From the NCBI GenBank assembly GCA_040905425.1, contig JBBDRO010000033.1, positions 1-46,429 of the forward strand: a stretch of DNA of 46,429 nucleotides, given 5' to 3'. Position numbers and translations under genes: made by a program. Numbering within the stretch: position 1 is the stretch's first letter; each line of letters opens with the position of its first letter. This DNA is from Gemmatimonadota bacterium. GTDB taxonomy: Bacteria > Gemmatimonadota > Gemmatimonadetes > Longimicrobiales > RSA9. The notes under the pieces were generated by a model. That model was not told the origin of the DNA, did no database searches, and was given only the letters and a program-made list of their open reading frames with translations. This document shows, piece by piece, positions 8,327 through 40,497 of the stretch.

Positions 8327-10644
8327 GCCCGGGCGCGCTCCTCCTGGCGCTGGGCCTGCTGCTGCCGCCGCAGGAGCCCGGCACGGCCACCGCACAGCTG
8401 CGGGTGGGCGCCACCCTCGTGCCCACGGAGCTGCACGTGGGTGAGACTGCCGTACTGCGCATCACCGTGGAGGGTCCAGCGGGCGACGCGCCGGTCGTGC
8501 GGATGCCTACGCCGCCGCTCGGCCTGCAACTGCGCGGCACGCAGACGCAGTTTCGTGGCAGCGGCGCGGGAACCAGGCGCCTGTTCGTACGTGAACTGCT
8601 CCTGGAGGCCGTGACCCCGGGCACGTATACGCTGCCGGCCGCCACCATACAGGTAGGGGACCAGATCCGCCGCACCGCGGTGCTCTCCCTCACCGTGCGC
8701 CCCAGGCCTCCCTCCCAGCCGGGCGGAGCGGAGGAGGTCCTGCTGCGCATGACGGCCGAGCCGGACACGGTCTACGTGGGCCAGGAGGTGCGCCTGCGCA
8801 CCGAGGCGCTCTTTCCGGCCGACCTGCGCCTCCGCCAGGCCCGTCCGGCGGTGCTGGAGCCACCCGACGCGGCAGGCTTCTGGAGCTATGACCTGCCGCG
8901 CCCCGCGGGTAGCACGGTGCGCGTGGAAGAGGGTCGTCGCTACGAAACCGAGACCTTCGTGCGCAGCTATTTTCCGCTGGAGGCCGGCACATACCAACTG
9001 GAGGGCGCACGCCTCACCTACGAGGTGCGGCGCGGCTTCCTGGGCGATCCGTTACCTGGCGAGGCCACCGCCGCGCCCGTCCGGGTGGTGGTGCTGCCCC
9101 TGCCGGACAGCGGCCGTCCGGCGGAATTCGCCGGTGCGGTCGGCCGCTATGGCGTGAGTGCCCGCTTGCGGCCGACCACCGTGGGGGTGGGGGAGAGCGC
9201 CGAACTGGTGGTGGAGGTGACGGGTCAGGGAAACGTGAAAGCGCTTCCGCCCCCGGTGCTGCCGAGCCTGGAGGGGGTCGAGGCCCACGCGCTCGAGGAG
9301 GAGACGGAGCTGGAGTTGACGGGCAACGCGGTGCGCGGCACCAAGCGGTTCCGCTGGGCCCTCATTCCCGGCGCGGGCGGGAGGGTGTCCATCGACGGCG
9401 TGGCGCTGCCCTTCTTCGATCCCGAGGCGCGCAGCTACGATGTGGCGCGCGCCGCGCCGCTGGATCTCACGGTCGTCCCCTCGAGCGGCAGCCAGGGCGT
9501 ACTGCCTGCGCTGCTCGACCGCCCGCGCCCGCGCCTGCTGACCTGGGTGTGGAGCCCCTGGTTTCTGACGCTGCAACTCACGCCGCTGCTGCTGGTGGGT
9601 GGCGCGCTGCTGCTGCGCGCGCGCCGGCGGCGTGCCGCGGCCGTGGTGCAGCCACCGCGCCTTCCGGACAACGCCAGTCTGGCGGAGGTGGAGCGTGTGC
9701 TGCGCCAGGCCGTTGCCACAACGACCGGCGTGGAACCGACCGCGGCGCCCGCCGAACTGGGCCGTGCGCTCGCCAGGAGCGGAGCCGGGGCCGACATAGC
9801 GGACGCCGTGGTGGACCTGCTGCAGCGCGTGGAACGCGCCCGCTACGCACCAGGAGGGGAGGGGGAGGACGCCGCGCTGGCAGGAGCCGCGGCGGGCATC
9901 CTGGCACGCCTGCCGCTTCCTGAACGGGCCCCGCGCAGCCGGCACGGCGCGGTGGCCGGTGCCCTCCTGGCCATCCTGCTCGCGGCCCCGGGGCCGGCGC
10001 AGGGTCCGGATGCCTTCGGTGCGGGCGTGGCCGCCTACGAGGCGGCGCGGTGGGATGAGGCTCTGCGTCATTTCGAACACCACCTGGTCTACCACCCGGA
10101 GGACGCGGCAGGCTGGTTCAACGCCGGCCTGGCGCAGGCACGCGCCGGCCGGCATGGTCACGCCGTGCATGCCTGGGTACGCGCCACCCGATTGGCCCCG
10201 CGGCTGGACGCACCGCGCGCCGCGCTACGGGCGGTGGGGGCGGGTGAGGCGCTCAGCCTGGCCACCCCACGGCTGCCCGTGCGCCGCCACGAGGCCCTGC
10301 TGGCGGCTGCCGCCGCCTGGCTGCTGGCGGGATCGCTGGCCGCGCTGGGCGTCCTGGTGAGCGGGAGCAGGATGCTTCGCGGTGCGGCCGGTGCGGCGGG
10401 CGCAGCCGTACTGGCTCTCGGCGCGGCAGCCGCGGCGCCCGCCCCGGCCGGGGTGGTGGTAGTGGTGGAGGACAGCACGTCGGTGCATGCCGCGCCGGTG
10501 TCGCGGGCGGAGGTCCTGGGCCGACTCGGTCCCGGAGCCACGGTGCGCGTGGTGGAGCGGCGCGCGGACTGGGTCCGCGTGCGCCCCAGCCAAGGCGTGG
10601 AGGGGTGGATCCCCGCCGCGGCGGCGCCGCCGCTGGACGGGTGA
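8323..10644 (+). CDS. BatD-BatE fusion: Ig-like BatD domains + TM + TPR + SH3b
   Basis: GTGA overlap. Signal peptide, TVYVGQEV, FAGAVGRY, GQGNVKAL, FFDPEARSY (BatD). WFNAGLA TPR and GATVRVVERRADWVRVR..GVEGWIP SH3 (BatE). Confidence 0.8.
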   Translation: MSPGALLLALGLLLPPQEPGTATAQLRVGATLVPTELHVGETAVLRITVEGPAGDAPVVRMPTPPLGLQLRGTQTQFRGSGAGTRRLFVRELLLEAVTPGTYTLPAATIQVGDQIRRTAVLSLTVRPRPPSQPGGAEEVLLRMTAEPDTVYVGQEVRLRTEALFPADLRLRQARPAVLEPPDAAGFWSYDLPRPAGSTVRVEEGRRYETETFVRSYFPLEAGTYQLEGARLTYEVRRGFLGDPLPGEATAAPVRVVVLPLPDSGRPAEFAGAVGRYGVSARLRPTTVGVGESAELVVEVTGQGNVKALPPPVLPSLEGVEAHALEEETELELTGNAVRGTKRFRWALIPGAGGRVSIDGVALPFFDPEARSYDVARAAPLDLTVVPSSGSQGVLPALLDRPRPRLLTWVWSPWFLTLQLTPLLLVGGALLLRARRRRAAAVVQPPRLPDNASLAEVERVLRQAVATTTGVEPTAAPAELGRALARSGAGADIADAVVDLLQRVERARYAPGGEGEDAALAGAAAGILARLPLPERAPRSRHGAVAGALLAILLAAPGPAQGPDAFGAGVAAYEAARWDEALRHFEHHLVYHPEDAAGWFNAGLAQARAGRHGHAVHAWVRATRLAPRLDAPRAALRAVGAGEALSLATPRLPVRRHEALLAAAAAWLLAGSLAALGVLVSGSRMLRGAAGAAGAAVLALGAAAAAPAPAGVVVVVEDSTSVHAAPVSRAEVLGRLGPGATVRVVERRADWVRVRPSQGVEGWIPAAAAPPLDG

Positions 10645-10731: not shown

Positions 10732-10805
10732 GGGCCCGTAGCTCAGTCGGTCAGAGCATCCGACTCATAATCGGCAGGTCCTGGGTTCGAGTCCCAGCGG
10801 GCCCA
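10732..10805 (+). tRNA. tRNA-Ile2 (anticodon CAT, presumably lysidine-modified); CCA not encoded
   Basis: Acceptor stem GGGCCCG/CGGGCCC + A73, D-arm TAGCTCAGTCGGTCAGAGC, anticodon loop CT-CAT-AA (10766-10768), T-loop GGTTCGAGTCC. Overall pattern matches Ile2 rather than fMet (paired first base pair, no GGG/CCC anticodon stem). Elongator Met cannot be fully excluded. Confidence 0.9.
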
Positions 10806-26198: not shown

Positions 26199-27107
26199 TC
26201 ATGGCGCCGAGCGTCCGCCCGCCTGGAAGCGGGCGGGCTCCAGGCGGGCCAGCACGGCATGTCGTTCTCGCGGCACGGCCAGGATGGGTCCCCACACGCC
26301 GTACAGATCCCGATAATCGCGCTCGAGATGCCGCAATGGCACACGGCTGCCCACGCGCCAACCGCGATATCCCCCGGTGGTGAGCAGCCGGCCGATGGCG
26401 GCGTCTTCCGCCGGCGAATGGCTCTCCATCAGGAACACCGGTCGGTACCGCCGGATGGTCTCGGTCATGCCGGCGAGCGCCGGCGCCCCGCCTCCCTCGA
26501 TGTCCATCTTGATGAAGGCAGGTGCCAGGCCGCGGCTGGCCAGCGTGGCGTCGACCACCGCCGTCGGCACCTCGATCCGCGCTGCCTCCGGCCCCGCCCA
26601 GTCGTTCAACAGGGATGCCGTGTGGGGATTGCTCGGGACGAAGAAGGACGCGGTGCCCGCGCGGTCGCTCGCGGCGGCCTCCAGCACTTCCGTCCGTCGG
26701 CAACCGTTGCGCGCCAGGTTGCGCTCCAGCAGGGCGCGGGTCGCGGGAACCGGCTCCAGCGCCAGCACGCGCCCATGAGGGCCCACCGCGGCATCCAGCA
26801 GGAGCGTGAAGTAGCCCGCGTTGGCGCCCAACTCGAGCACCGCGTCACCGGGCGCGACCACCTGGCGGATAACCTCCGCCGTGCCGGGTTCGAGCGTGCC
26901 GACGAACACGCCGGGGCTCAACCAGGGGACGTATTCCAGCCATCGGCCGCGATTGGGACCCGCCAGCACGGGGTAGGAGCGCCCTTCGCGCAGCGCACGC
27001 CGGATCGCGACCGAGAGCGCTCGCCGAAGCGGGGACGGGAGATCCGCTGGCGGCAGCGCGCGCCGCGCCGCGGCCGCCAATACGCGCCACGCACGGATAT
27101 GCGTCAT
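26199..27107 (-). CDS. FkbM-family SAM-dependent methyltransferase
   Basis: VLELGANAGYFT, VLALEP, AASD, FIKMDIEGG motifs. Confidence 0.85.
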   Translation of the reverse strand: MTHIRAWRVLAAAARRALPPADLPSPLRRALSVAIRRALREGRSYPVLAGPNRGRWLEYVPWLSPGVFVGTLEPGTAEVIRQVVAPGDAVLELGANAGYFTLLLDAAVGPHGRVLALEPVPATRALLERNLARNGCRRTEVLEAAASDRAGTASFFVPSNPHTASLLNDWAGPEAARIEVPTAVVDATLASRGLAPAFIKMDIEGGGAPALAGMTETIRRYRPVFLMESHSPAEDAAIGRLLTTGGYRGWRVGSRVPLRHLERDYRDLYGVWGPILAVPRERHAVLARLEPARFQAGGRSAP

Positions 27108-27133
27108 GGTCCAGCCGAGGGCGGCGTCACCCC

Positions 27134-27571
27134 TCAGCCCGGCTGGCTTACCGAGGCGTGGTCGGTAGCTTCGGCAATGGCGCCCAGCACCCGGGCGAAC
27201 CCGGCGCGGTCGGCCTCGGTCGTGGCGCGCAGGACCTGGCCGTCCACCACGTCCAGCAACCCCTGCACACGTTCGGCCAACGCACGGCCCGTCCCGGTGA
27301 GTACCACCAGGACGCTGCGCCGATCGGCGGGATTGGGTTTGCGGCTCACCAGGCGGTGGTCCGCGAGGCGGTCGACCACCGTGGTGAGCGTGGACGGCTT
27401 GAAGCCGAAAATCGCCTGCAATTCACCGATGGGGCAGGGACCGCGTGCCTCCAGGTAGGCCAGCATCCGTCCATCGGCCGGCGCCAGGTCCAGGCGGGCA
27501 CAGTGGCCCTCCAGGTAGTGTGCGAAGTCCCGCTCGGCCCTGCGGAGCTGCTCCAGAAAGCGTTCTGCCAT
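27134..27571 (-). CDS. MarR-family transcriptional regulator
   Basis: STLTTVVDRL...LVSRKPNPADRRSVLVVLTGTGR winged-helix signature; SD GAGGTG. Confidence 0.9.
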   Translation of the reverse strand: MAERFLEQLRRAERDFAHYLEGHCARLDLAPADGRMLAYLEARGPCPIGELQAIFGFKPSTLTTVVDRLADHRLVSRKPNPADRRSVLVVLTGTGRALAERVQGLLDVVDGQVLRATTEADRAGFARVLGAIAEATDHASVSQPG

Positions 27572-27625
27572 GCTGTCACCTCGAAGGGGGAAGAGCCGCC
27601 CTCGAAGGGGGCCGTCGTCCGGGAC

Positions 27626-27654
27626 AGTATATTACGAAACCGTACAAATAGCAT
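27626..27654 (-). promoter_or_regulatory. Putative marR-fkbM promoter with palindromic operator
   Basis: Minus strand ATGCTA-17-TATACT within an AT-rich island; TACG-N4-CGTA palindrome (27633-27644) in the spacer. Confidence 0.5.
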
Positions 27655-27701
27655 GATACGCCGTGGCGCGGCTACCGGCAAGGGGACCTCGGGGCGAGCC
27701 G

Positions 27702-27731
27702 TTGACGAGGCCCGCGTGGCGGGCCTATGTT
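27702..27731 (+). promoter_or_regulatory. sigma70-type promoter of the thrS leader
   Basis: TTGACG (27702-27707), 18 nt, TATGTT (27726-27731). Confidence 0.65.
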
Positions 27732-27761
27732 TCCGGCTCGAACTCATGACGGGGAGGCCTC

Positions 27762-27821
27762 ATGCGCCCGCGTAGCAGCATCACGACCGCCACAACGAGC
27801 CGCCGCCGGAGGGGGGCGTAG
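27762..27821 (+). CDS. Thr-rich attenuator leader peptide MRPRSSITTATTSRRRRGA (19 aa)
   Basis: SD GGAGG 27753-27757, ATG 27762, Thr codons ACG ACC (GCC) ACA ACG at 27783-27797, TAG 27819-27821. Lies directly upstream of a terminator and thrS. Confidence 0.8.
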   Translation: MRPRSSITTATTSRRRRGA

Positions 27822-27854
27822 CGATCGTAGCGGTGCGTCCGGCGCCCGGCGAGC

Positions 27855-27891
27855 GCGGCCTCTCCTCCGGAGCAGGCCGCTTTCTTTTTTT
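27855..27891 (+). terminator. Attenuator terminator upstream of thrS
   Basis: GCGGCCT/AGGCCGC stem with inner CTCC/GGAG, followed by TTTCTTTTTTT. Confidence 0.85.
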
Positions 27892-27918
27892 CGTCCAGTG
27901 AACCAAGAGTACGCTACG

Positions 27919-29835
27919 ATGATCAACATCACGCTTCCCGACGGGAAGGTCCTGGAGATGGAGGACGGCAGCACCCCTCTCCAGGTGGCCGAGCGCATCG
28001 GGCCCGGGCTGGCCAAAGCGGCCCTGGCCGGCAAGGTGGACGGCGCCGTGGTGGACCTGCGGCGCCCCATCACGGCGCATGCCCGCGTGGAGATCATCAC
28101 GGCGCGGAGCCCGGAGGCGCTGGACGTGCTGCGCCATTCCGCGGCCCACGTGTTGGCCACGGCCGTGCGCCAGGTGCGTCCGGGGGCCGGCATCGGCTTC
28201 GGCCCCGCCATCAAGGAAGGCTTCTACTACGACTTCGAGGTGGACGAGCCCTTCACGCCCGAGGAGTTGGAGACCATCGAAGGTGAGATGGCCAGGGTGG
28301 CCGCGGCCGCCGATCCGTTCGAGCGGCGCGAAGTGAGCCGTGAGGAGGCGCGGGAGCTCTTTGCCGACGATCCGCTCAAGCTGGAGCGACTCGAGGAGCT
28401 GGGCCCGGACGAGGTCATCAGTGTCTACAGGAACGGTCCCTTCCTGGACCTGTGCCGCGGCCCGCATGTGCCGGACACGGGGCTGGTGAAGCACTTCAAG
28501 CTGCTCAACACCGCCGGGGCCTACTGGCGGGGTGACGAGAAGCGGCAGATGCTGCAGCGCATCTACGGCACCGCCTTCCTCTCGGAGAAGGACCTGGCCG
28601 CCCACCTCGAGCGCCTGGAGGAGGCACGCAAGCGGGACCATCGCCGCTTGGGCCGCGAGCTGGACCTCTTCTGGTTCCACCCGTCCGCGCCGGGCGCGCC
28701 GTTCTGGACCGATCGTGGCACCACGATCTTCGAGACGCTCAGGGCGTGGATGGTGGGGCGCCTCCGGGAGGGTACCTACGAGATCGTGAAGACGCCGCTG
28801 CTCTACAACAAGAGCCTGTGGGAGACTTCCGGGCACTGGGGGAAGTACAGGGAGAACATGTTCCTGGTGCTCGACAACGAGTCGGGCGAGCACGATTTCT
28901 CCCTCAAGCCCATGAACTGCCCGTCCCACCACCTCATGTTCGCGGCCCGGCGGCGCAGCTACCGGGAGCTGCCCGTGCGCTACGCCACGCAGGACGTGCT
29001 GCATCGCAACGAGGTGAGCGGGGCGTTGGCCGGACTCACGCGGGTACGGCAGTTCCAGCAGGATGACGCCCACATCTATCTCATGGAGTCCCAGATCGTG
29101 GAGGAGGTGCGCCGTCTCACGGAGATGGTGGACTACTTCTATCGCACGCTGGGGCTGAAGTACTGCGTGAAGTTTGCCACGCGTCCCGAGCAGCGGGTGG
29201 GTACGGACGCGCTCTGGGACCAGGCCGAGGCCATCCTCCAGGACGCGCTCGAGCGGCTGGATCTGGCGTACGAGCTGAAGCCGGGGGACGGCGCCTTCTA
29301 CGGGCCCAAGATCGACTTCGACGTGGAGGATGCCATCGGGCGCAGCTGGCAACTCGGCACCATCCAGCTGGACTACCAGAATCCCGAGCGCTTCGACCTG
29401 CACTACGTGGGTGAGGACAACGCCGACCACCGCCCGGTGATCATCCACCGGGCCATCTTCGGCTCCTTCGAACGCTTCATTGCCATCCTGATCGAGCACT
29501 TCGCGGGCGCCTTCCCGCTCTGGCTGGCGCCGGAGCAGGTGCGGGTGCTGCCCATCACGGATGGCGTGCTGGAGAGTGCGCGTGCCCTGGCCGGGGAGCT
29601 GGAGGCCGCGGGGCTGCGGACGCACGTGGACGAGCGCAGTGAGACGCTGGGCTACAAGATCCGTGAGGGGGAGACCGGCAAGGTCCCCTACATGGCGGTG
29701 GTGGGCGAGCGTGAGGCGGAGGCCGGCACGGTGGCCGTGCGGCGTCGCGGGGGCGGCAAGAAGCAGGACGTCATGCCGCGCCAGGAATTCGTGGCGCGGC
29801 TTCAGGAGGAAGCCGCGAGCCGCTCGCTGGGGTAG
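27919..29835 (+). CDS. thrS: Threonine--tRNA ligase
   Basis: TGS domain (INITLPDG), RHSAAH, DLCRGPHV, RDHRRLG, KPMNCP, AFYGPKID, IHRAIFGSFERF. Confidence 0.98.
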   Translation: MINITLPDGKVLEMEDGSTPLQVAERIGPGLAKAALAGKVDGAVVDLRRPITAHARVEIITARSPEALDVLRHSAAHVLATAVRQVRPGAGIGFGPAIKEGFYYDFEVDEPFTPEELETIEGEMARVAAAADPFERREVSREEARELFADDPLKLERLEELGPDEVISVYRNGPFLDLCRGPHVPDTGLVKHFKLLNTAGAYWRGDEKRQMLQRIYGTAFLSEKDLAAHLERLEEARKRDHRRLGRELDLFWFHPSAPGAPFWTDRGTTIFETLRAWMVGRLREGTYEIVKTPLLYNKSLWETSGHWGKYRENMFLVLDNESGEHDFSLKPMNCPSHHLMFAARRRSYRELPVRYATQDVLHRNEVSGALAGLTRVRQFQQDDAHIYLMESQIVEEVRRLTEMVDYFYRTLGLKYCVKFATRPEQRVGTDALWDQAEAILQDALERLDLAYELKPGDGAFYGPKIDFDVEDAIGRSWQLGTIQLDYQNPERFDLHYVGEDNADHRPVIIHRAIFGSFERFIAILIEHFAGAFPLWLAPEQVRVLPITDGVLESARALAGELEAAGLRTHVDERSETLGYKIREGETGKVPYMAVVGEREAEAGTVAVRRRGGGKKQDVMPRQEFVARLQEEAASRSLG

Positions 29836-29901
29836 AAGGCGCCCGGGAAGGTGGCGCCGCGCGGGCGGCTGCGCGGCGTCGTCGCTTACGAACGTGCCGT
29901 C

Positions 29902-29930
29902 TTGACCTGCCGTGGCGGTGGCGCTAGCTT
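29902..29930 (+). promoter_or_regulatory. sigma70-type promoter of infC-rpmI-rplT
   Basis: TTGACC (29902-29907), 17 nt, TAGCTT (29925-29930). Confidence 0.7.
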
Positions 29931-29936
29931 TCCGCC

Positions 29937-30090
29937 TTACAATATGGGAAGCGGGCGGGGTAGCACCCTCCCCACCCTTCGGTCCGCGCCGCGGTACCGC
30001 CGGGTCTCGCGCTGACGGTCCCCACCGGTGCGTCCACCGGGTGAGGGCTGTTCGCATGAGAGGCCCGCAGCAGCGGGCCTTTTGATTTTT
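29937..30090 (+). ncRNA. Putative ribosomal protein L20 leader-like cis-regulatory RNA ending in a terminator
   Basis: CCCTCCCCACCC (29966-29977) pairs with GGGTGAGGG (30039-30047). Terminator AGGCCCGC-AGCA-GCGGGCCT-TTTGATTTTT (30061-30090). Position matches the Firmicutes L20 leader. Confidence 0.6.
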
Positions 30091-30107
30091 CTCGCCCGGA
30101 GGACGAG

Positions 30108-30623
30108 ATAACGACCGACAAGCGCACACGCGTGAACCGCCAGATCCGGATCAGCCCGGTCCGGGTCATCGCCGATGACGGCGAACAGCTCGGGATCCTG
30201 ACCATCGAGGATGCGTTGACCCGGGCCGAGGAGCTGGGTCTGGACCTCGTGGAGGTGGCGCCCACGGCGCGTCCTCCGGTGGTCCGCATCATGGACTACG
30301 GCAAGTTCAAGTACGAGGAAGCGCGCAAGGCCCGGCAGGCCAAGAAGAAGCAGCACCAGATCCAGGTCAAGGAGGTGAAGTTCCGGCCCGGGATCGAGCC
30401 CCACGACTTCGAGTTCAAGCTCCGGCACGCGCGGCGCTTCCTCGAGGAGGGCAACAAGGTGAAGGCCACCATGATGTTCCGCGGGCGCCAGATGGCGCGC
30501 CCGGAGCACGGGCGGGAGGTGCTCGCCAGGGTGGCGGAGGTGCTGGAGGACGTCGGCAAGGTGGAGGCCAATCCGTCCATGGAGGGCCGCACCATGACCA
30601 TGATCGTGGCGCCGCGGAAGTAA
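30108..30623 (+). CDS. infC: Translation initiation factor IF-3, probable non-canonical ATA start
   Basis: SD GGAGG 30098-30102 then in-frame ATA at 30108 ([14 protein letters not shown]); [29 protein letters not shown]. Confidence 0.95.
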
Positions 30624-30649
30624 GCGGCCGGTACATAGCTGGAGGAACG

Positions 30650-30847
30650 ATGCCCAAGATGAAGACGAACCGGAGCGCCGCGAAGCGCTTCAAGGTGACC
30701 GGTAAGGGGAAGGTCAAGCGTGGCCATGCGTACACCAGCCACATCCTCACCAAGAAGTCCCAGAAGCGGAAGCGCAAGCTCCGCAAGCCGGATCTGGTGC
30801 ATGCCGCGGACGAGCGGCGCATCAAGCGGCTGATCATGGGAGGCTGA
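30650..30847 (+). CDS. rpmI: 50S ribosomal protein L35
   Basis: [28 protein letters not shown]. Confidence 0.97.
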
Positions 30848-30848
30848 C

Positions 30849-31211
30849 ATGGCAAGAGCTACCAACGCCGTTGCACGGCACAGGAAGCACAAGCGGTATC
30901 TGCGCGCCGCGCGTGGCTATTTCGGGGGCCGTTCCAAGCTGTGGCGGACCGCCAAGAGCGCCGTGGAGCGTGGCTGGGCGTATTCCTACCGGGACCGCAA
31001 GCAGCGCAAGCGTGACTTCCGCCGCCTGTGGATCACGCGCATCAACGCGGCGGTCCGCGAGCAGGACAGCGCCCTCAACTACTCCCGCTTCATGAACGGG
31101 CTGAAGCTGTCCGGCGTGGAGGTGAACCGGAAGGTCCTGGCGGACCTGGCGGTGCGGGATTCGGCCGCCTTCGGGGAGCTGGTCGAGAAGGCCAAGGCCT
31201 CCCTGCCGTAG
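30849..31211 (+). CDS. rplT: 50S ribosomal protein L20
   Basis: [41 protein letters not shown]. Confidence 0.97.
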
Positions 31212-31264
31212 GCACGCCGGCAGCGGGCATGGCTCGCCGCCGGAGGACAGCGCGGTCCGGTACA

Positions 31265-31347
31265 CGCCGGCCGCCCCGGATGCCGCGCCGTTCAGAAGAC
31301 GGGGCGGCACGGCCGCCGCGAGCGGCCCCGGGGCGGCCGGCGGTTTT
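31265..31347 (+). other. Structured intergenic element (three-way junction plus short U-tract) between rplT and pheS
   Basis: Perfect 15-bp outer stem (31265-31279 / 31328-31342) enclosing two hairpins, followed by GTTTT. Confidence 0.55.
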
Positions 31348-31373
31348 ACATCCTCCCCCGAAGTGCGCACATT
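31345..31373 (+). promoter_or_regulatory. Putative pheS promoter
   Basis: TTTACA, 17 nt, CACATT. Confidence 0.4.
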
Positions 31374-31414
31374 GCGGGCGCCCGCGCACGGGGTCGTGAG
31401 CCCAGAGGAGATCC

Positions 31415-32443
31415 ATGGACGGCAGTATCGAGCAAAAACTGCAGGAGCTGGAGGCCGAGGCGCGGCAGGCCGTTCCGGCGGCAGCTGACGCGGCGGCACT
31501 CGAGGCGGTGCGCATCCGGCTGCTCGGCCGCAAGGAGGGCCGGCTCACGGCCATCATGCGCACCCTGGGTGAGCTGTCCGCCGCCGAGCGTCCCGCGGCG
31601 GGGCAGGCGGCCAACCGGGCCAAGGACGTCATCACCGGCCTGCTCGACGCGCGCGACGCGGAGCTGGCCGCGGCCACCGAGGACGGCCGCGAGGCGGTGG
31701 ATCTGACGCTGCCCGGCCGGACGCAGTGGCGCGGGGGGCGGCACCCCGTGACCCTGGTGGTGGACGAGATCTGCGCCATCTTCCGGACGCTGGGCTTCAG
31801 CCGGGTGCGGGGCCCGGAGGTGGAGACCGACTGGTACAACTTCACCGCGCTGAACACGCCGCTGGACCACCCGGCGGCCGACATGAGTGACACGTTCTAC
31901 CTGCCGGGCGGGCTCCTGCTGCGCAGCCACACCTCACCCGTGCAGGTGCGCACCATGCAGGCCCACGCGCCACCCATCCGCGTGGTGGCGCCGGGGATGG
32001 TCTACCGGCGCGATCCCTACGACGCCTCCCATGCCCCAGCCTTCGAGCAGATCGAGGGGCTGGCCGTGGACGAGGGCATCACCTTCGTGGACTTCAAGGC
32101 CACACTGGCCGAATTCGCCCGGCGCTTCTTCGGCGCCGACGCGGAGGTGCGCTTCCGGCCGTCGTTCTTTCCCTTCACGGAGCCCAGTGCCGAGGTGGAC
32201 GTGAGCTGCCTGCTCTGTGACCGGCAGGGGTGCAGCGCCTGCAAGGGCACGGGATGGATCGAGATCATGGGCGCAGGCATGGTGGACCCGGGTGTCTTCG
32301 AGCAGGTGGGCTACGACCCCGAGCGCTATACGGGGTTTGCCTTCGGCATGGGTCCGGCCCGCGTGGCCATGCTGCGCTACGGCATCCCCGACATCCGGCT
32401 CTTCTACGAGGGAGACGTGCGCTTCCTCCGGCAGTTCGCGTGA
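31415..32443 (+). CDS. pheS: Phenylalanine--tRNA ligase alpha subunit
   Basis: NFTALN, LLRSHTSPVQ, RPSFFPFTEPS, GFAFGMG; CxxC..CxxC insert. Confidence 0.97.
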   Translation: MDGSIEQKLQELEAEARQAVPAAADAAALEAVRIRLLGRKEGRLTAIMRTLGELSAAERPAAGQAANRAKDVITGLLDARDAELAAATEDGREAVDLTLPGRTQWRGGRHPVTLVVDEICAIFRTLGFSRVRGPEVETDWYNFTALNTPLDHPAADMSDTFYLPGGLLLRSHTSPVQVRTMQAHAPPIRVVAPGMVYRRDPYDASHAPAFEQIEGLAVDEGITFVDFKATLAEFARRFFGADAEVRFRPSFFPFTEPSAEVDVSCLLCDRQGCSACKGTGWIEIMGAGMVDPGVFEQVGYDPERYTGFAFGMGPARVAMLRYGIPDIRLFYEGDVRFLRQFA

Positions 32444-39360: not shown

Positions 39361-39586
39361 CAAGCGGACGAAATCCGGCGGCGAGCGCCTGGAGCCGCGC
39401 CTGCGCCGGCTGGACGAGATCGTGGCGGGGCTGGAACGCGAGGATCTGGAACTCGAGGACGCGCTGGCCCTCTTCGAGGAGGGGGTGGGGCACATCCGCG
39501 CCGCCCGCGAGGTGCTGGAGCGGGCCACGCAGCGTGTGGATCAGCTCCTGGAGATTGCGGCAAGCGACGAGGGCGCCGCGCCGTGA
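39347..39586 (+). CDS. xseB: Exodeoxyribonuclease VII small subunit
   Basis: LDEIVAGLE..LEDALALFEEG; SD GAGGAGG. Confidence 0.88.
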   Translation: MARPSKRTKSGGERLEPRLRRLDEIVAGLEREDLELEDALALFEEGVGHIRAAREVLERATQRVDQLLEIAASDEGAAP

Positions 39587-40497
39587 CCGGCACCGCCGGC
39601 GCCAGCGCGCCCGTCACGTTCCTCGCGGAACAACGACCCGGGGTGGAAGCGGCGCTGCTGCGCGTGGCGGACGAGTTGGCCGGCCGGGATGTCGTTCGCG
39701 AGGCCCTGCGCTACGCCCTGGGCGGCACCGGCAAGCGCCTGCGGCCGATTCTGTGCATGGCCGCCTATCGCGCTGTGGGGGGGAGCGGAGCGGACGCGGC
39801 CGTGCACGACCTGGCGGTGGCGCTGGAGCTGGTGCACACGTATTCGCTGGTGCATGACGACCTGCCGTGCATGGATGATGACGCCTTGCGGCGGGGCCGG
39901 GCTACGGTGCACCGTGTCTTCGGAGCGGACGTGGCCATGGTGACGGGGGCGGCGCTCATCCCGCTCGCGCTCGCGCGTGTGGCCCGGGCCGCCGTGGCCA
40001 TGGGATTGGAAGAAACGCGCGCCAGCCGGCTGGTGGTGGAGCTGGCGCAGGGGGCGGGCGCGGCCGGCATGGTGGGCGGCCAGCTTCTGGACCTGGAGGC
40101 GGAGGGACACGCTCCGGGCCTTGATGACGTGGACGTCATTCATGCCCGCAAGACCGGCGCATTGCTGGCGGCGGCGCCCCGCATGGGAGGTGTGGCGGGC
40201 GGGGCGGGCGAGGGCATCGTGAGCGCGCTCGGACGCTACGGCCAGGCGCTGGGACTGGCCTTCCAGATCACGGATGACGTGCTCGACGTGGCCGGTGATC
40301 CGGCGGTCCTGGGCAAGGAGGCGGGGCGGGACACCGCACACGAGAAGGCCACCTATCCCGCGCTCCTGGGCCTGGACGGCGCCCGGACACGAGCGGGGGA
40401 GGCGGCGGCCGACGCCATTGCCGCATTGCGCGGCGCGCGTATCGAGAGCCCGGAGCTCGAGGGTCTGGCCCGGTTCGCGGCGGAGCGCGATCGTTGA
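39583..40497 (+). CDS. ispA: Farnesyl/geranylgeranyl diphosphate synthase
   Basis: GKRLRP, SLVHDDLPCMDDDALRRG, GQLLDL, KTG, FQITDDVLD. Confidence 0.93.
   Translation: MTGTAGASAPVTFLAEQRPGVEAALLRVADELAGRDVVREALRYALGGTGKRLRPILCMAAYRAVGGSGADAAVHDLAVALELVHTYSLVHDDLPCMDDDALRRGRATVHRVFGADVAMVTGAALIPLALARVARAAVAMGLEETRASRLVVELAQGAGAAGMVGGQLLDLEAEGHAPGLDDVDVIHARKTGALLAAAPRMGGVAGGAGEGIVSALGRYGQALGLAFQITDDVLDVAGDPAVLGKEAGRDTAHEKATYPALLGLDGARTRAGEAAADAIAALRGARIESPELEGLARFAAERDR

Follow-up and report, generated by a model that had tools for sequence, protein, structure and literature searches.

Evidence for a candidate threonine leader-peptide attenuator before thrS in Longimicrobiales (Gemmatimonadota) and for similar leaders before other amino acid genes

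In Escherichia coli, the thr operon is preceded by thrL, a short open reading frame (ORF) with clustered Thr and Ile codons, by an antiterminator overlapping the 3' end of this ORF and by a terminator, and the pheM-pheST system, part of the thrS-infC-rpmI-rplT-pheST cluster, places an aminoacyl-tRNA synthetase gene under leader-peptide attenuation. A protector or pause (1:2) hairpin, which terminates untranslated leaders, is usual in enterobacterial attenuators, though not universal. In Firmicutes thrS is under T-box control, and classical attenuators upstream of thrS were reportedly predicted in some bacteria by Vitreschak et al. in 2004 and by Lopatovskaya et al. in 2010, two studies which, to our knowledge, do not cover Gemmatimonadota. 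The element analyzed here precedes thrS, the threonine-tRNA ligase (ThrRS) gene, in a stretch of 46,429 nucleotides (nt) from a Gemmatimonadota bacterium of the order Longimicrobiales (assembly GCA_040905425.1, contig JBBDRO010000033.1; hereafter the window) and, to judge from its sequence, is very probably a classical attenuator of the ribosome-mediated type, through which the charging of tRNA-Thr would determine the level of thrS transcription. The leader-peptide attenuator class is defined in PMC2836559; PMC6524683 and PMC2965389 describe, respectively, the autorepression of E. coli thrS via a translational operator and the swapping of T-box and leader-peptide control at a single gene. For Streptomyces lividans, PMC8079986 reports from RNA-seq a leaderless thrL of 18 amino acids (aa) with two Thr before thrS, gives it no U-rich terminator and calls its termination unclear. 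The original prediction for the present locus, which had named peptide attenuation of thrS solely as a comparative prediction for some proteobacteria, is to be amended, given this Thr leader peptide already in print (PMC8079986). Our literature search, which did not extend to supplements with possible leader lists (e.g., those of PMC2965389 and PMC4833913), returned no description of attenuation in Gemmatimonadota.

The locus resembles E. coli thrL in its clustered-Thr ORF, in an antiterminator that overlaps the 3' end of the ORF and in an intrinsic terminator before the gene, but it would control a synthetase rather than biosynthesis, employs Thr only and has no conserved protector helix. With pheM-pheST it would share an attenuated synthetase gene, a feedback loop through charged tRNA and the same gene cluster, although here the leader precedes thrS and not pheS. 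As in S. lividans, a Thr leader peptide stands before thrS, and 16 of 45 related leaders are likewise apparently leaderless; in contrast, an intrinsic terminator and a covarying antiterminator are present here, and the sequences are dissimilar. The E. coli operator and the Firmicutes T-box act on the same gene and also match ThrRS to tRNA-Thr charging. Unlike in those systems, the T-box model (RF00230) had no match in the 96.7% complete source genome, its positive control matching in 5 of 14 genomes, and anticodon-like hairpins of the E. coli operator type are not in excess before thrS, occurring in 7 of 45 regions with the leader (6.3 in shuffles) and in 17 of 133 without it (18.1 in shuffles). 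Apart from the protector helix, the thrS leader appears to possess every feature of the class that can be sought in sequence. The original prediction had called the attenuator complete, which goes too far, as a conserved protector (1:2) helix was not found.

The promoter, the Shine-Dalgarno (SD) sequence, the 19-aa Thr ORF, the terminator and the 11-bp alternative helix of that prediction were all recovered where it had placed them (Table 1). A promoter scan of positions 27000-28500 returned two sites, whereas 50 shuffles averaged 0.0, and the site before thrS scored 9 of 12 matches with an 18-nt spacer; similar promoter boxes precede the leaders of relatives (by eye), and transcription would start near 27737-27739. 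The deduced leader peptide contains 4 Thr, 6 Arg and 3 Ser, and the three tRNA-Thr of the source genome (CGU, GGU, UGU) together read all of its Thr codons. Among 20,000 dinucleotide shuffles of 27732-27854, three yielded an ATG or GTG ORF with 4 Thr in 8 codons, and none of 20,000 combined a Thr-run ORF with a duplex of -15 kcal/mol or lower with the terminator arm, the observed duplex having -24.3 kcal/mol. Genome-wide, an ORF bearing some amino-acid cluster stands upstream of 37 of 265 strong terminators, and the thrS leader is the only one of these 37 with Thr as its top cluster; a looser genome-wide scan was discarded as too noisy. The terminator hairpin (-20.3 kcal/mol, z -4.27) was not equaled in stability by any of 200 shuffles; a simple terminator scan of 27000-28500 found no terminator, probably because the stem contains a bulge. 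The antiterminator helix comprises 9 Watson-Crick and 2 G-U pairs, and the hairpin that it closes has -43.6 kcal/mol and a z of -2.34 (5 of 200 shuffles as stable). The leader SD region (27751-27759) can also form 9 bp with the terminator 5' arm (27857-27865), a pairing overlooked in the original prediction. The hairpin ends 38 nt before the thrS ATG (35 to >280 nt in relatives), the gap between U-tract and thrS start being 27 nt, and since the upstream MarR-family gene is divergent, the hairpin does not serve as its terminator.

We infer the following course of events. RNA polymerase would start near 27738, and a ribosome would load on the leader ORF behind it. With ample Thr-tRNA, the ribosome would clear the Thr run and cover 27806-27816 while the 5' arm of the terminator emerges, so that the hairpin can form, with transcription stopping within the U-tract (about 27885-27891). 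If Thr-tRNA runs low, for want of threonine or of ThrRS, the ribosome would wait at codons 8-12, leaving 27806-27816 free to pair with 27860-27870 ahead of the terminator 3' arm, and polymerase, coupled to the ribosome in this manner, would enter thrS. The net effect would be a negative feedback of the synthetase product on its own gene.

Table 1. Features of the thrS region of the window and candidate leaders elsewhere in the source genome (G000).
Feature	Position	Strand	Remarks
Sigma70-type promoter-like site TTGACG-18-TATGTT	27702-27731	+	promoter scan; TTGACG 27702-27707, TATGTT 27726-27731
SD-like GGAGG of leader ORF	27753-27757	+	4-nt spacing to ATG 27762, short
thrL-like leader ORF, 19 aa, MRPRSSITTATTSRRRRGA	27762-27821	+	from sequence; homologous ORFs in relatives
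Putative sensor codons Thr-Thr-Ala-Thr-Thr (ACG ACC GCC ACA ACG)	27783-27797	+	leader codons 8-12
Antiterminator 5' strand	27806-27816	+	pairs with 27860-27870; starts 8 nt past last Thr codon
Intrinsic terminator hairpin	27855-27880	+	7 bp + 4 bp around bulged C, 3-nt loop
Terminator U-tract TTTCTTTTTTT	27881-27891	+	10 T in 11 nt; U-rich tails in relatives
thrS, threonine-tRNA ligase, 638 aa, putatively regulated gene	27919-29835	+	TIGR00418, 666 bits (cut-off 384)
MarR-family gene, divergent, upstream of thrS	27134-27571	-	points away from thrS
Structured leader and promoter-like site before infC-rpmI-rplT-pheS-pheT	29902-30090	+	own terminator; z -3.27 and -4.37
His leader MTNRTALYRHAHHHHGPTGREKGE and terminator before hisG, apparently leaderless	G000:C52:107-253 (L230)		source genome
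Tyr/Phe leader MRPSHHTYRFSYFGYAYRGTTPGAGARV and terminator before DAHP synthase	G000:C14 ~9190-9330 (L318)	-	source genome
Cys/Met leader MPFCHLMCMCRECTALPRGEAAP and terminator before RimK-like ATP-grasp gene	G000:C81 ~39548-39702 (L319)	+	source genome

The conservation of the element was assessed in 228 thrS loci, from which 198 distinct upstream regions were scored; four loci were skipped because of a late match or insufficient upstream DNA, and six were not matched by the 100-residue query. Using a filter for a Thr-run ORF and a GGCC-type terminator, together with inspection by eye, 45 leaders were chosen, and a model, R1, was built from them. Of the 59 genomes in the source family (source genome included), 36 have a strong R1 match before thrS; the two sister families gave 1 of 8 and 1 of 4 genomes, and other orders none of 65. 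Most positives in this census are training sequences, and one negative has just 214 nt upstream; another R1-negative genome (L021) has a weak, Thr-poor leader (E 0.036). The leader of the window, itself a training sequence, scored 71 bits. Another 14 thrS loci with a Thr-run ORF came from an order-wide R1 search, which also made one false match on a groEL terminator. In all 45 leaders, which carry 3-10 Thr each, the stop codon lies 19-36 nt ahead of the hairpin. The retention of Thr run, stop and terminator in these 36 of 59 family genomes supports reading the element as an attenuator, as had been proposed from the window by itself, and in the alignment of related thrS upstream regions the Thr cluster is kept and both terminator and antiterminator pairs covary.

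In particular, 89.4% of terminator cells are paired over the 45 leaders, a value reached in 0 of 500 shuffles (44-60% in slid registers), and 39 cells are changed on both sides, against 17.9 ± 5.0 in shuffles. The antiterminator motif GGGRGGCGGCG, aligned from the ORF sequence alone in a motif search that excluded the stop codon and the Thr codons, has a single register of pairing with the terminator 5' arm (72%, versus 39-61% in others). Paired with its own arm, it forms 306 of 495 Watson-Crick cells versus 283.8 ± 5.4 (0 of 5,000 permutations), and after centring, own duplexes are 3.0 kcal/mol better than expected, in 39 of 45 leaders. Two earlier motif searches gave no antiterminator signal, having locked onto the stop codon and then onto the Thr codons. 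Ranking each leader's own terminator among foreign ones gave a weak signal (own best in 4 of 45 leaders, among the top three in 11 of 45), and RNAalifold on the plain alignment recovered just 4 terminator pairs and no antiterminator, as that part of the alignment is out of register. A register analysis that maximized pairing per sequence was circular and was not counted.

The stall-release logic was modeled by folding the RNA downstream of a ribosome mask of three widths, with the transcript cut before the terminator 3' arm, a scheme adopted after the full-length equilibrium result (below) had been seen. Predicted occupancy of the terminator arm was 0.82-0.86 for ribosome positions as far as the codon preceding the last Thr, then 0.72 on the last Thr itself and 0.38 three codons past it, with the same trend at the three mask widths, which places the modeled switch point just after the last Thr codon, in agreement with the mechanism as first put forward. 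With the ribosome stalled in the middle of the Thr codons, occupancy exceeded 0.5 in 43-45 of 45 leaders, depending on mask width.

The same scaffold also occurs before genes other than thrS. A total of 53 R1 matches were examined, namely 50 of the 153 from the order search (the best outside the known thrS loci) and the three best further ones in the source genome. Fifteen of them precede thrS, two are noise, one is a His leader at a contig end and 35 stand before another identifiable gene, named by profile searches for a subset and by N-terminus matching by eye for the rest. In 33 of these 35 the clustered residue fits the downstream gene: His before hisG (13), Thr before aspartokinase (10), Thr before thrB (4), Asn before asnB (4; L303, L304, L306, L315), Lys/Thr before asd (1) and Tyr before phhA (1). 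The other two (L280, L301) have the full scaffold before a DUF1611/DgcN (dgcN) gene, with no clear amino-acid cluster. Other orders gave nine R1 matches, comprising three Ile-rich leaders before the citramalate synthase gene cimA (L321, L322, L328, from another order of the same class), two His leaders before hisG and four without a fitting gene. Only Thr leaders were used to train R1, so that, of the lines of evidence for amino-acid sensing, this agreement between residue and gene is the least circular one. A further amendment to the original prediction is that the thrS leader belongs to a group-wide set of leaders and is not peculiar to thrS.

These data bear on the alternative that the leader is a general sensor of slowed translation, in which any stall within codons 2-14, on Arg, Ser or Ile codons or by antibiotics, opens the terminator and threonine is one input. 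In the window, modeled arm occupancy indeed stays near 0.7 wherever the ribosome sits within codons 2-14, and falls only at codon 15; Arg and Ser are both frequent in its peptide, and Arg makes up 18.5% of residues in related leaders. However, Thr (26.8% of residues) is the only clustered residue common to all 45 leaders, the G-rich antiterminator strand, past the switch point, accounts for most of the Arg and Gly codons, and at 33 of the 35 other loci the clustered residue changes with the downstream gene. We therefore regard a general slowdown sensor as very unlikely.

Several observations weigh against an attenuator of the proposed kind. The 45 leaders were preselected for Thr and terminator and their kinship makes them non-independent, so that the permutation counts are not true probabilities and are inflated by relatedness. 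The leader is missing in 23 of 59 family genomes, some of them beside close relatives in which it is present; on a quick 62-row ThrS tree its presence needs 15 changes, at least 5 across well-supported branches, and its distribution is thus patchy even within genera. No conserved protector (1:2) helix emerged from the 45 leaders (655 of 5,000 permutations as good), and the one possible in the window does not outperform shuffles (z +0.45); nor does the duplex of the window's whole post-Thr region with the arm rise above base shuffles (z +0.46). With the ribosome at the stop codon, arm occupancy fell below 0.5 in just 26-27 of 45 leaders, 19 of 45 staying above half. Finally, of the 28 leaders for which full-length equilibrium folds were computed, 21 kept the terminator at a mid-Thr stall, and the folds of the window favor the terminator at both the Thr9 and the Thr11 stall. 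Because equilibrium mostly favors the terminator, the model needs a kinetic argument in which the antiterminator would form first, as is usual in attenuators.

Untranslated RNA was predicted to occupy the terminator arm in 34 of 45 leaders. In the window it is the SD region that is predicted to break the terminator by pairing with its arm, so that in this genome removal of the leader ATG may give read-through rather than super-attenuation. This arrangement is not general, since most related leaders lack an SD: 12 of 45 have one, 16 have an ATG 4-8 nt past a -10-like box without SD and are probably leaderless, and 17 show neither arrangement. The 33 leaders without SD, the 16 leaderless-looking ones among them, the interrupted U-tracts of some relatives and the lack of a clear intrinsic terminator at Streptomyces thrL (PMC8079986) would suit an ORF that works by another route (Rho-dependent termination, RNA decay or thrS translation initiation) with the hairpin as a pause or stability element. 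Against this stand the 10 T within 11 nt after the hairpin in the window and the antiterminator helix that targets the hairpin's 5' arm; moreover, from its distance to the thrS ATG here and in relatives, the hairpin cannot hide the thrS ribosome-binding site, and we consider such a route highly improbable.

The frequent loss of the element in the family, together with its low Thr number in the window (4, in a range of 3-10), its short SD spacing and the ability of that SD to pair with the terminator arm, might also be expected of a fixed leaky terminator or a decayed remnant that regulates nothing here, thrS being controlled otherwise, e.g., by an E. coli-type translational operator. Yet the parts are all intact, the leader has 71 bits to R1 (as a training member), the 27 nt between U-tract and thrS start are too little for an operator, and anticodon-like hairpins before thrS remain at shuffle level in what is a crude motif count; the chance of a remnant appears slighter than that of any other alternative considered. 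A leader-peptide attenuator sensing tRNA-Thr charging thus remains the favored reading. With it, thrS control would have a third well-supported form next to the E. coli operator and the T-box, and transcription-translation coupling would be implied in Gemmatimonadota, although for specialists the surprise is modest, the mechanism being textbook and a thrS leader peptide already in print. In addition, R1 finds unannotated mini-genes and predicts the governing amino acid gene by gene in a mostly uncultured soil and sediment group.

As for the origin of the leader set, the thrS leader L132 and the thrB leader L278 of one genome are identical over 25 bases immediately downstream of the sensor codons, and the cimA leader L321, from another order, has 23 of the first 24 of these bases. 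Mean scaffold identity between leaders of different genes is mostly 0.55-0.68, versus 0.55 in shuffled pairs (maximum 0.65 of 300); being barely above shuffles, it does not establish common descent for all scaffolds, although some pairs, such as those above, are clearly homologous. We tentatively propose, as a single joint claim that we hold to be possible though somewhat short of probable, that Gemmatimonadetes possess one home-grown scaffold, a G-rich antiterminator strand with a GCGGCC-type terminator, which has been copied between genes and re-coded in a cassette-like manner: Thr for thrS, thrB and aspartokinase, His for hisG, Lys/Thr for asd, Asn for asnB, Ile for citramalate synthase and Tyr for phenylalanine hydroxylase. 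Within this claim, the thrS copy would be a Longimicrobiales addition, repeatedly gained or lost, and many copies would be leaderless; the SD of the window would serve as a second antiterminator, such that failed initiation would switch thrS on. If true, such a set would form a natural series for the evolution of amino-acid sensors and would add Asn sensors and Ile sensors of cimA, neither of which was found described in the literature search. For Asn leaders before asnB, that search left supplements uncovered and had most subscription journals outside its reach. The asnB of the source genome (C42) has a short leader without the Asn scaffold, and its aspartokinase, asd, thrB and thrC genes (the genome carries both thrB and thrC) lie inside operons without such a leader.

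The thrS gene of the window is the sole full-length copy found in the source genome, and the closest titled relatives of its product are from Longimicrobiales and other Gemmatimonadota. A long in-frame extension of thrS from ATG 27727 was rejected, as this codon sits in the -10 box and the extension is absent from relatives. Downstream follow infC, rpmI, rplT, pheS and pheT (rpmI and pheT identified by eye). Because they have their own promoter-like site, structured leader and terminator, these genes are probably spared the Thr switch, the infC leader probably uncoupling them from it. Its promoter-like site, TTGACC-17-TAGCTT, falls below the threshold of the promoter scan, its terminator hairpin lies at 30057-30084 (+), and its motifs are common to about 24 of 26 relatives (by eye; loci L002-L029). 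It had no Rfam match; we take it, as a prediction, to resemble an L20-type ribosomal-protein attenuator. In the 203 nt before pheS, neither a Phe-rich ORF nor a terminator was seen. At gathering score, Rfam models matched nothing in the window except a tRNA gene at 10732-10805 (+), and nothing in 20 related loci; the Thr_leader model (RF00506) had no match at E values up to 5 in the window or in these 20 loci, and at this threshold 27550-31450 gave two chance matches.

A few further observations concern the same loci. Also overlooked in the original prediction, a 9-codon ORF that lacks an SD (MTGRPHAPA, 27746-27775, +) begins at an out-of-frame ATG (27746) and overlaps the SD and start of the leader ORF; its conservation was not seen. 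The MarR-family gene has a promoter-like site of its own at 27653-27681 (-), back to back with the thrS promoter. On the quick tree, the ThrS proteins of this group form two deep clades that do not follow family lines, and one genome (G080) has two thrS matches (L150, L151) with the leader at just one of them. In the source genome, a second hairpin with a U-tract lies directly upstream of the Cys/Met leader.

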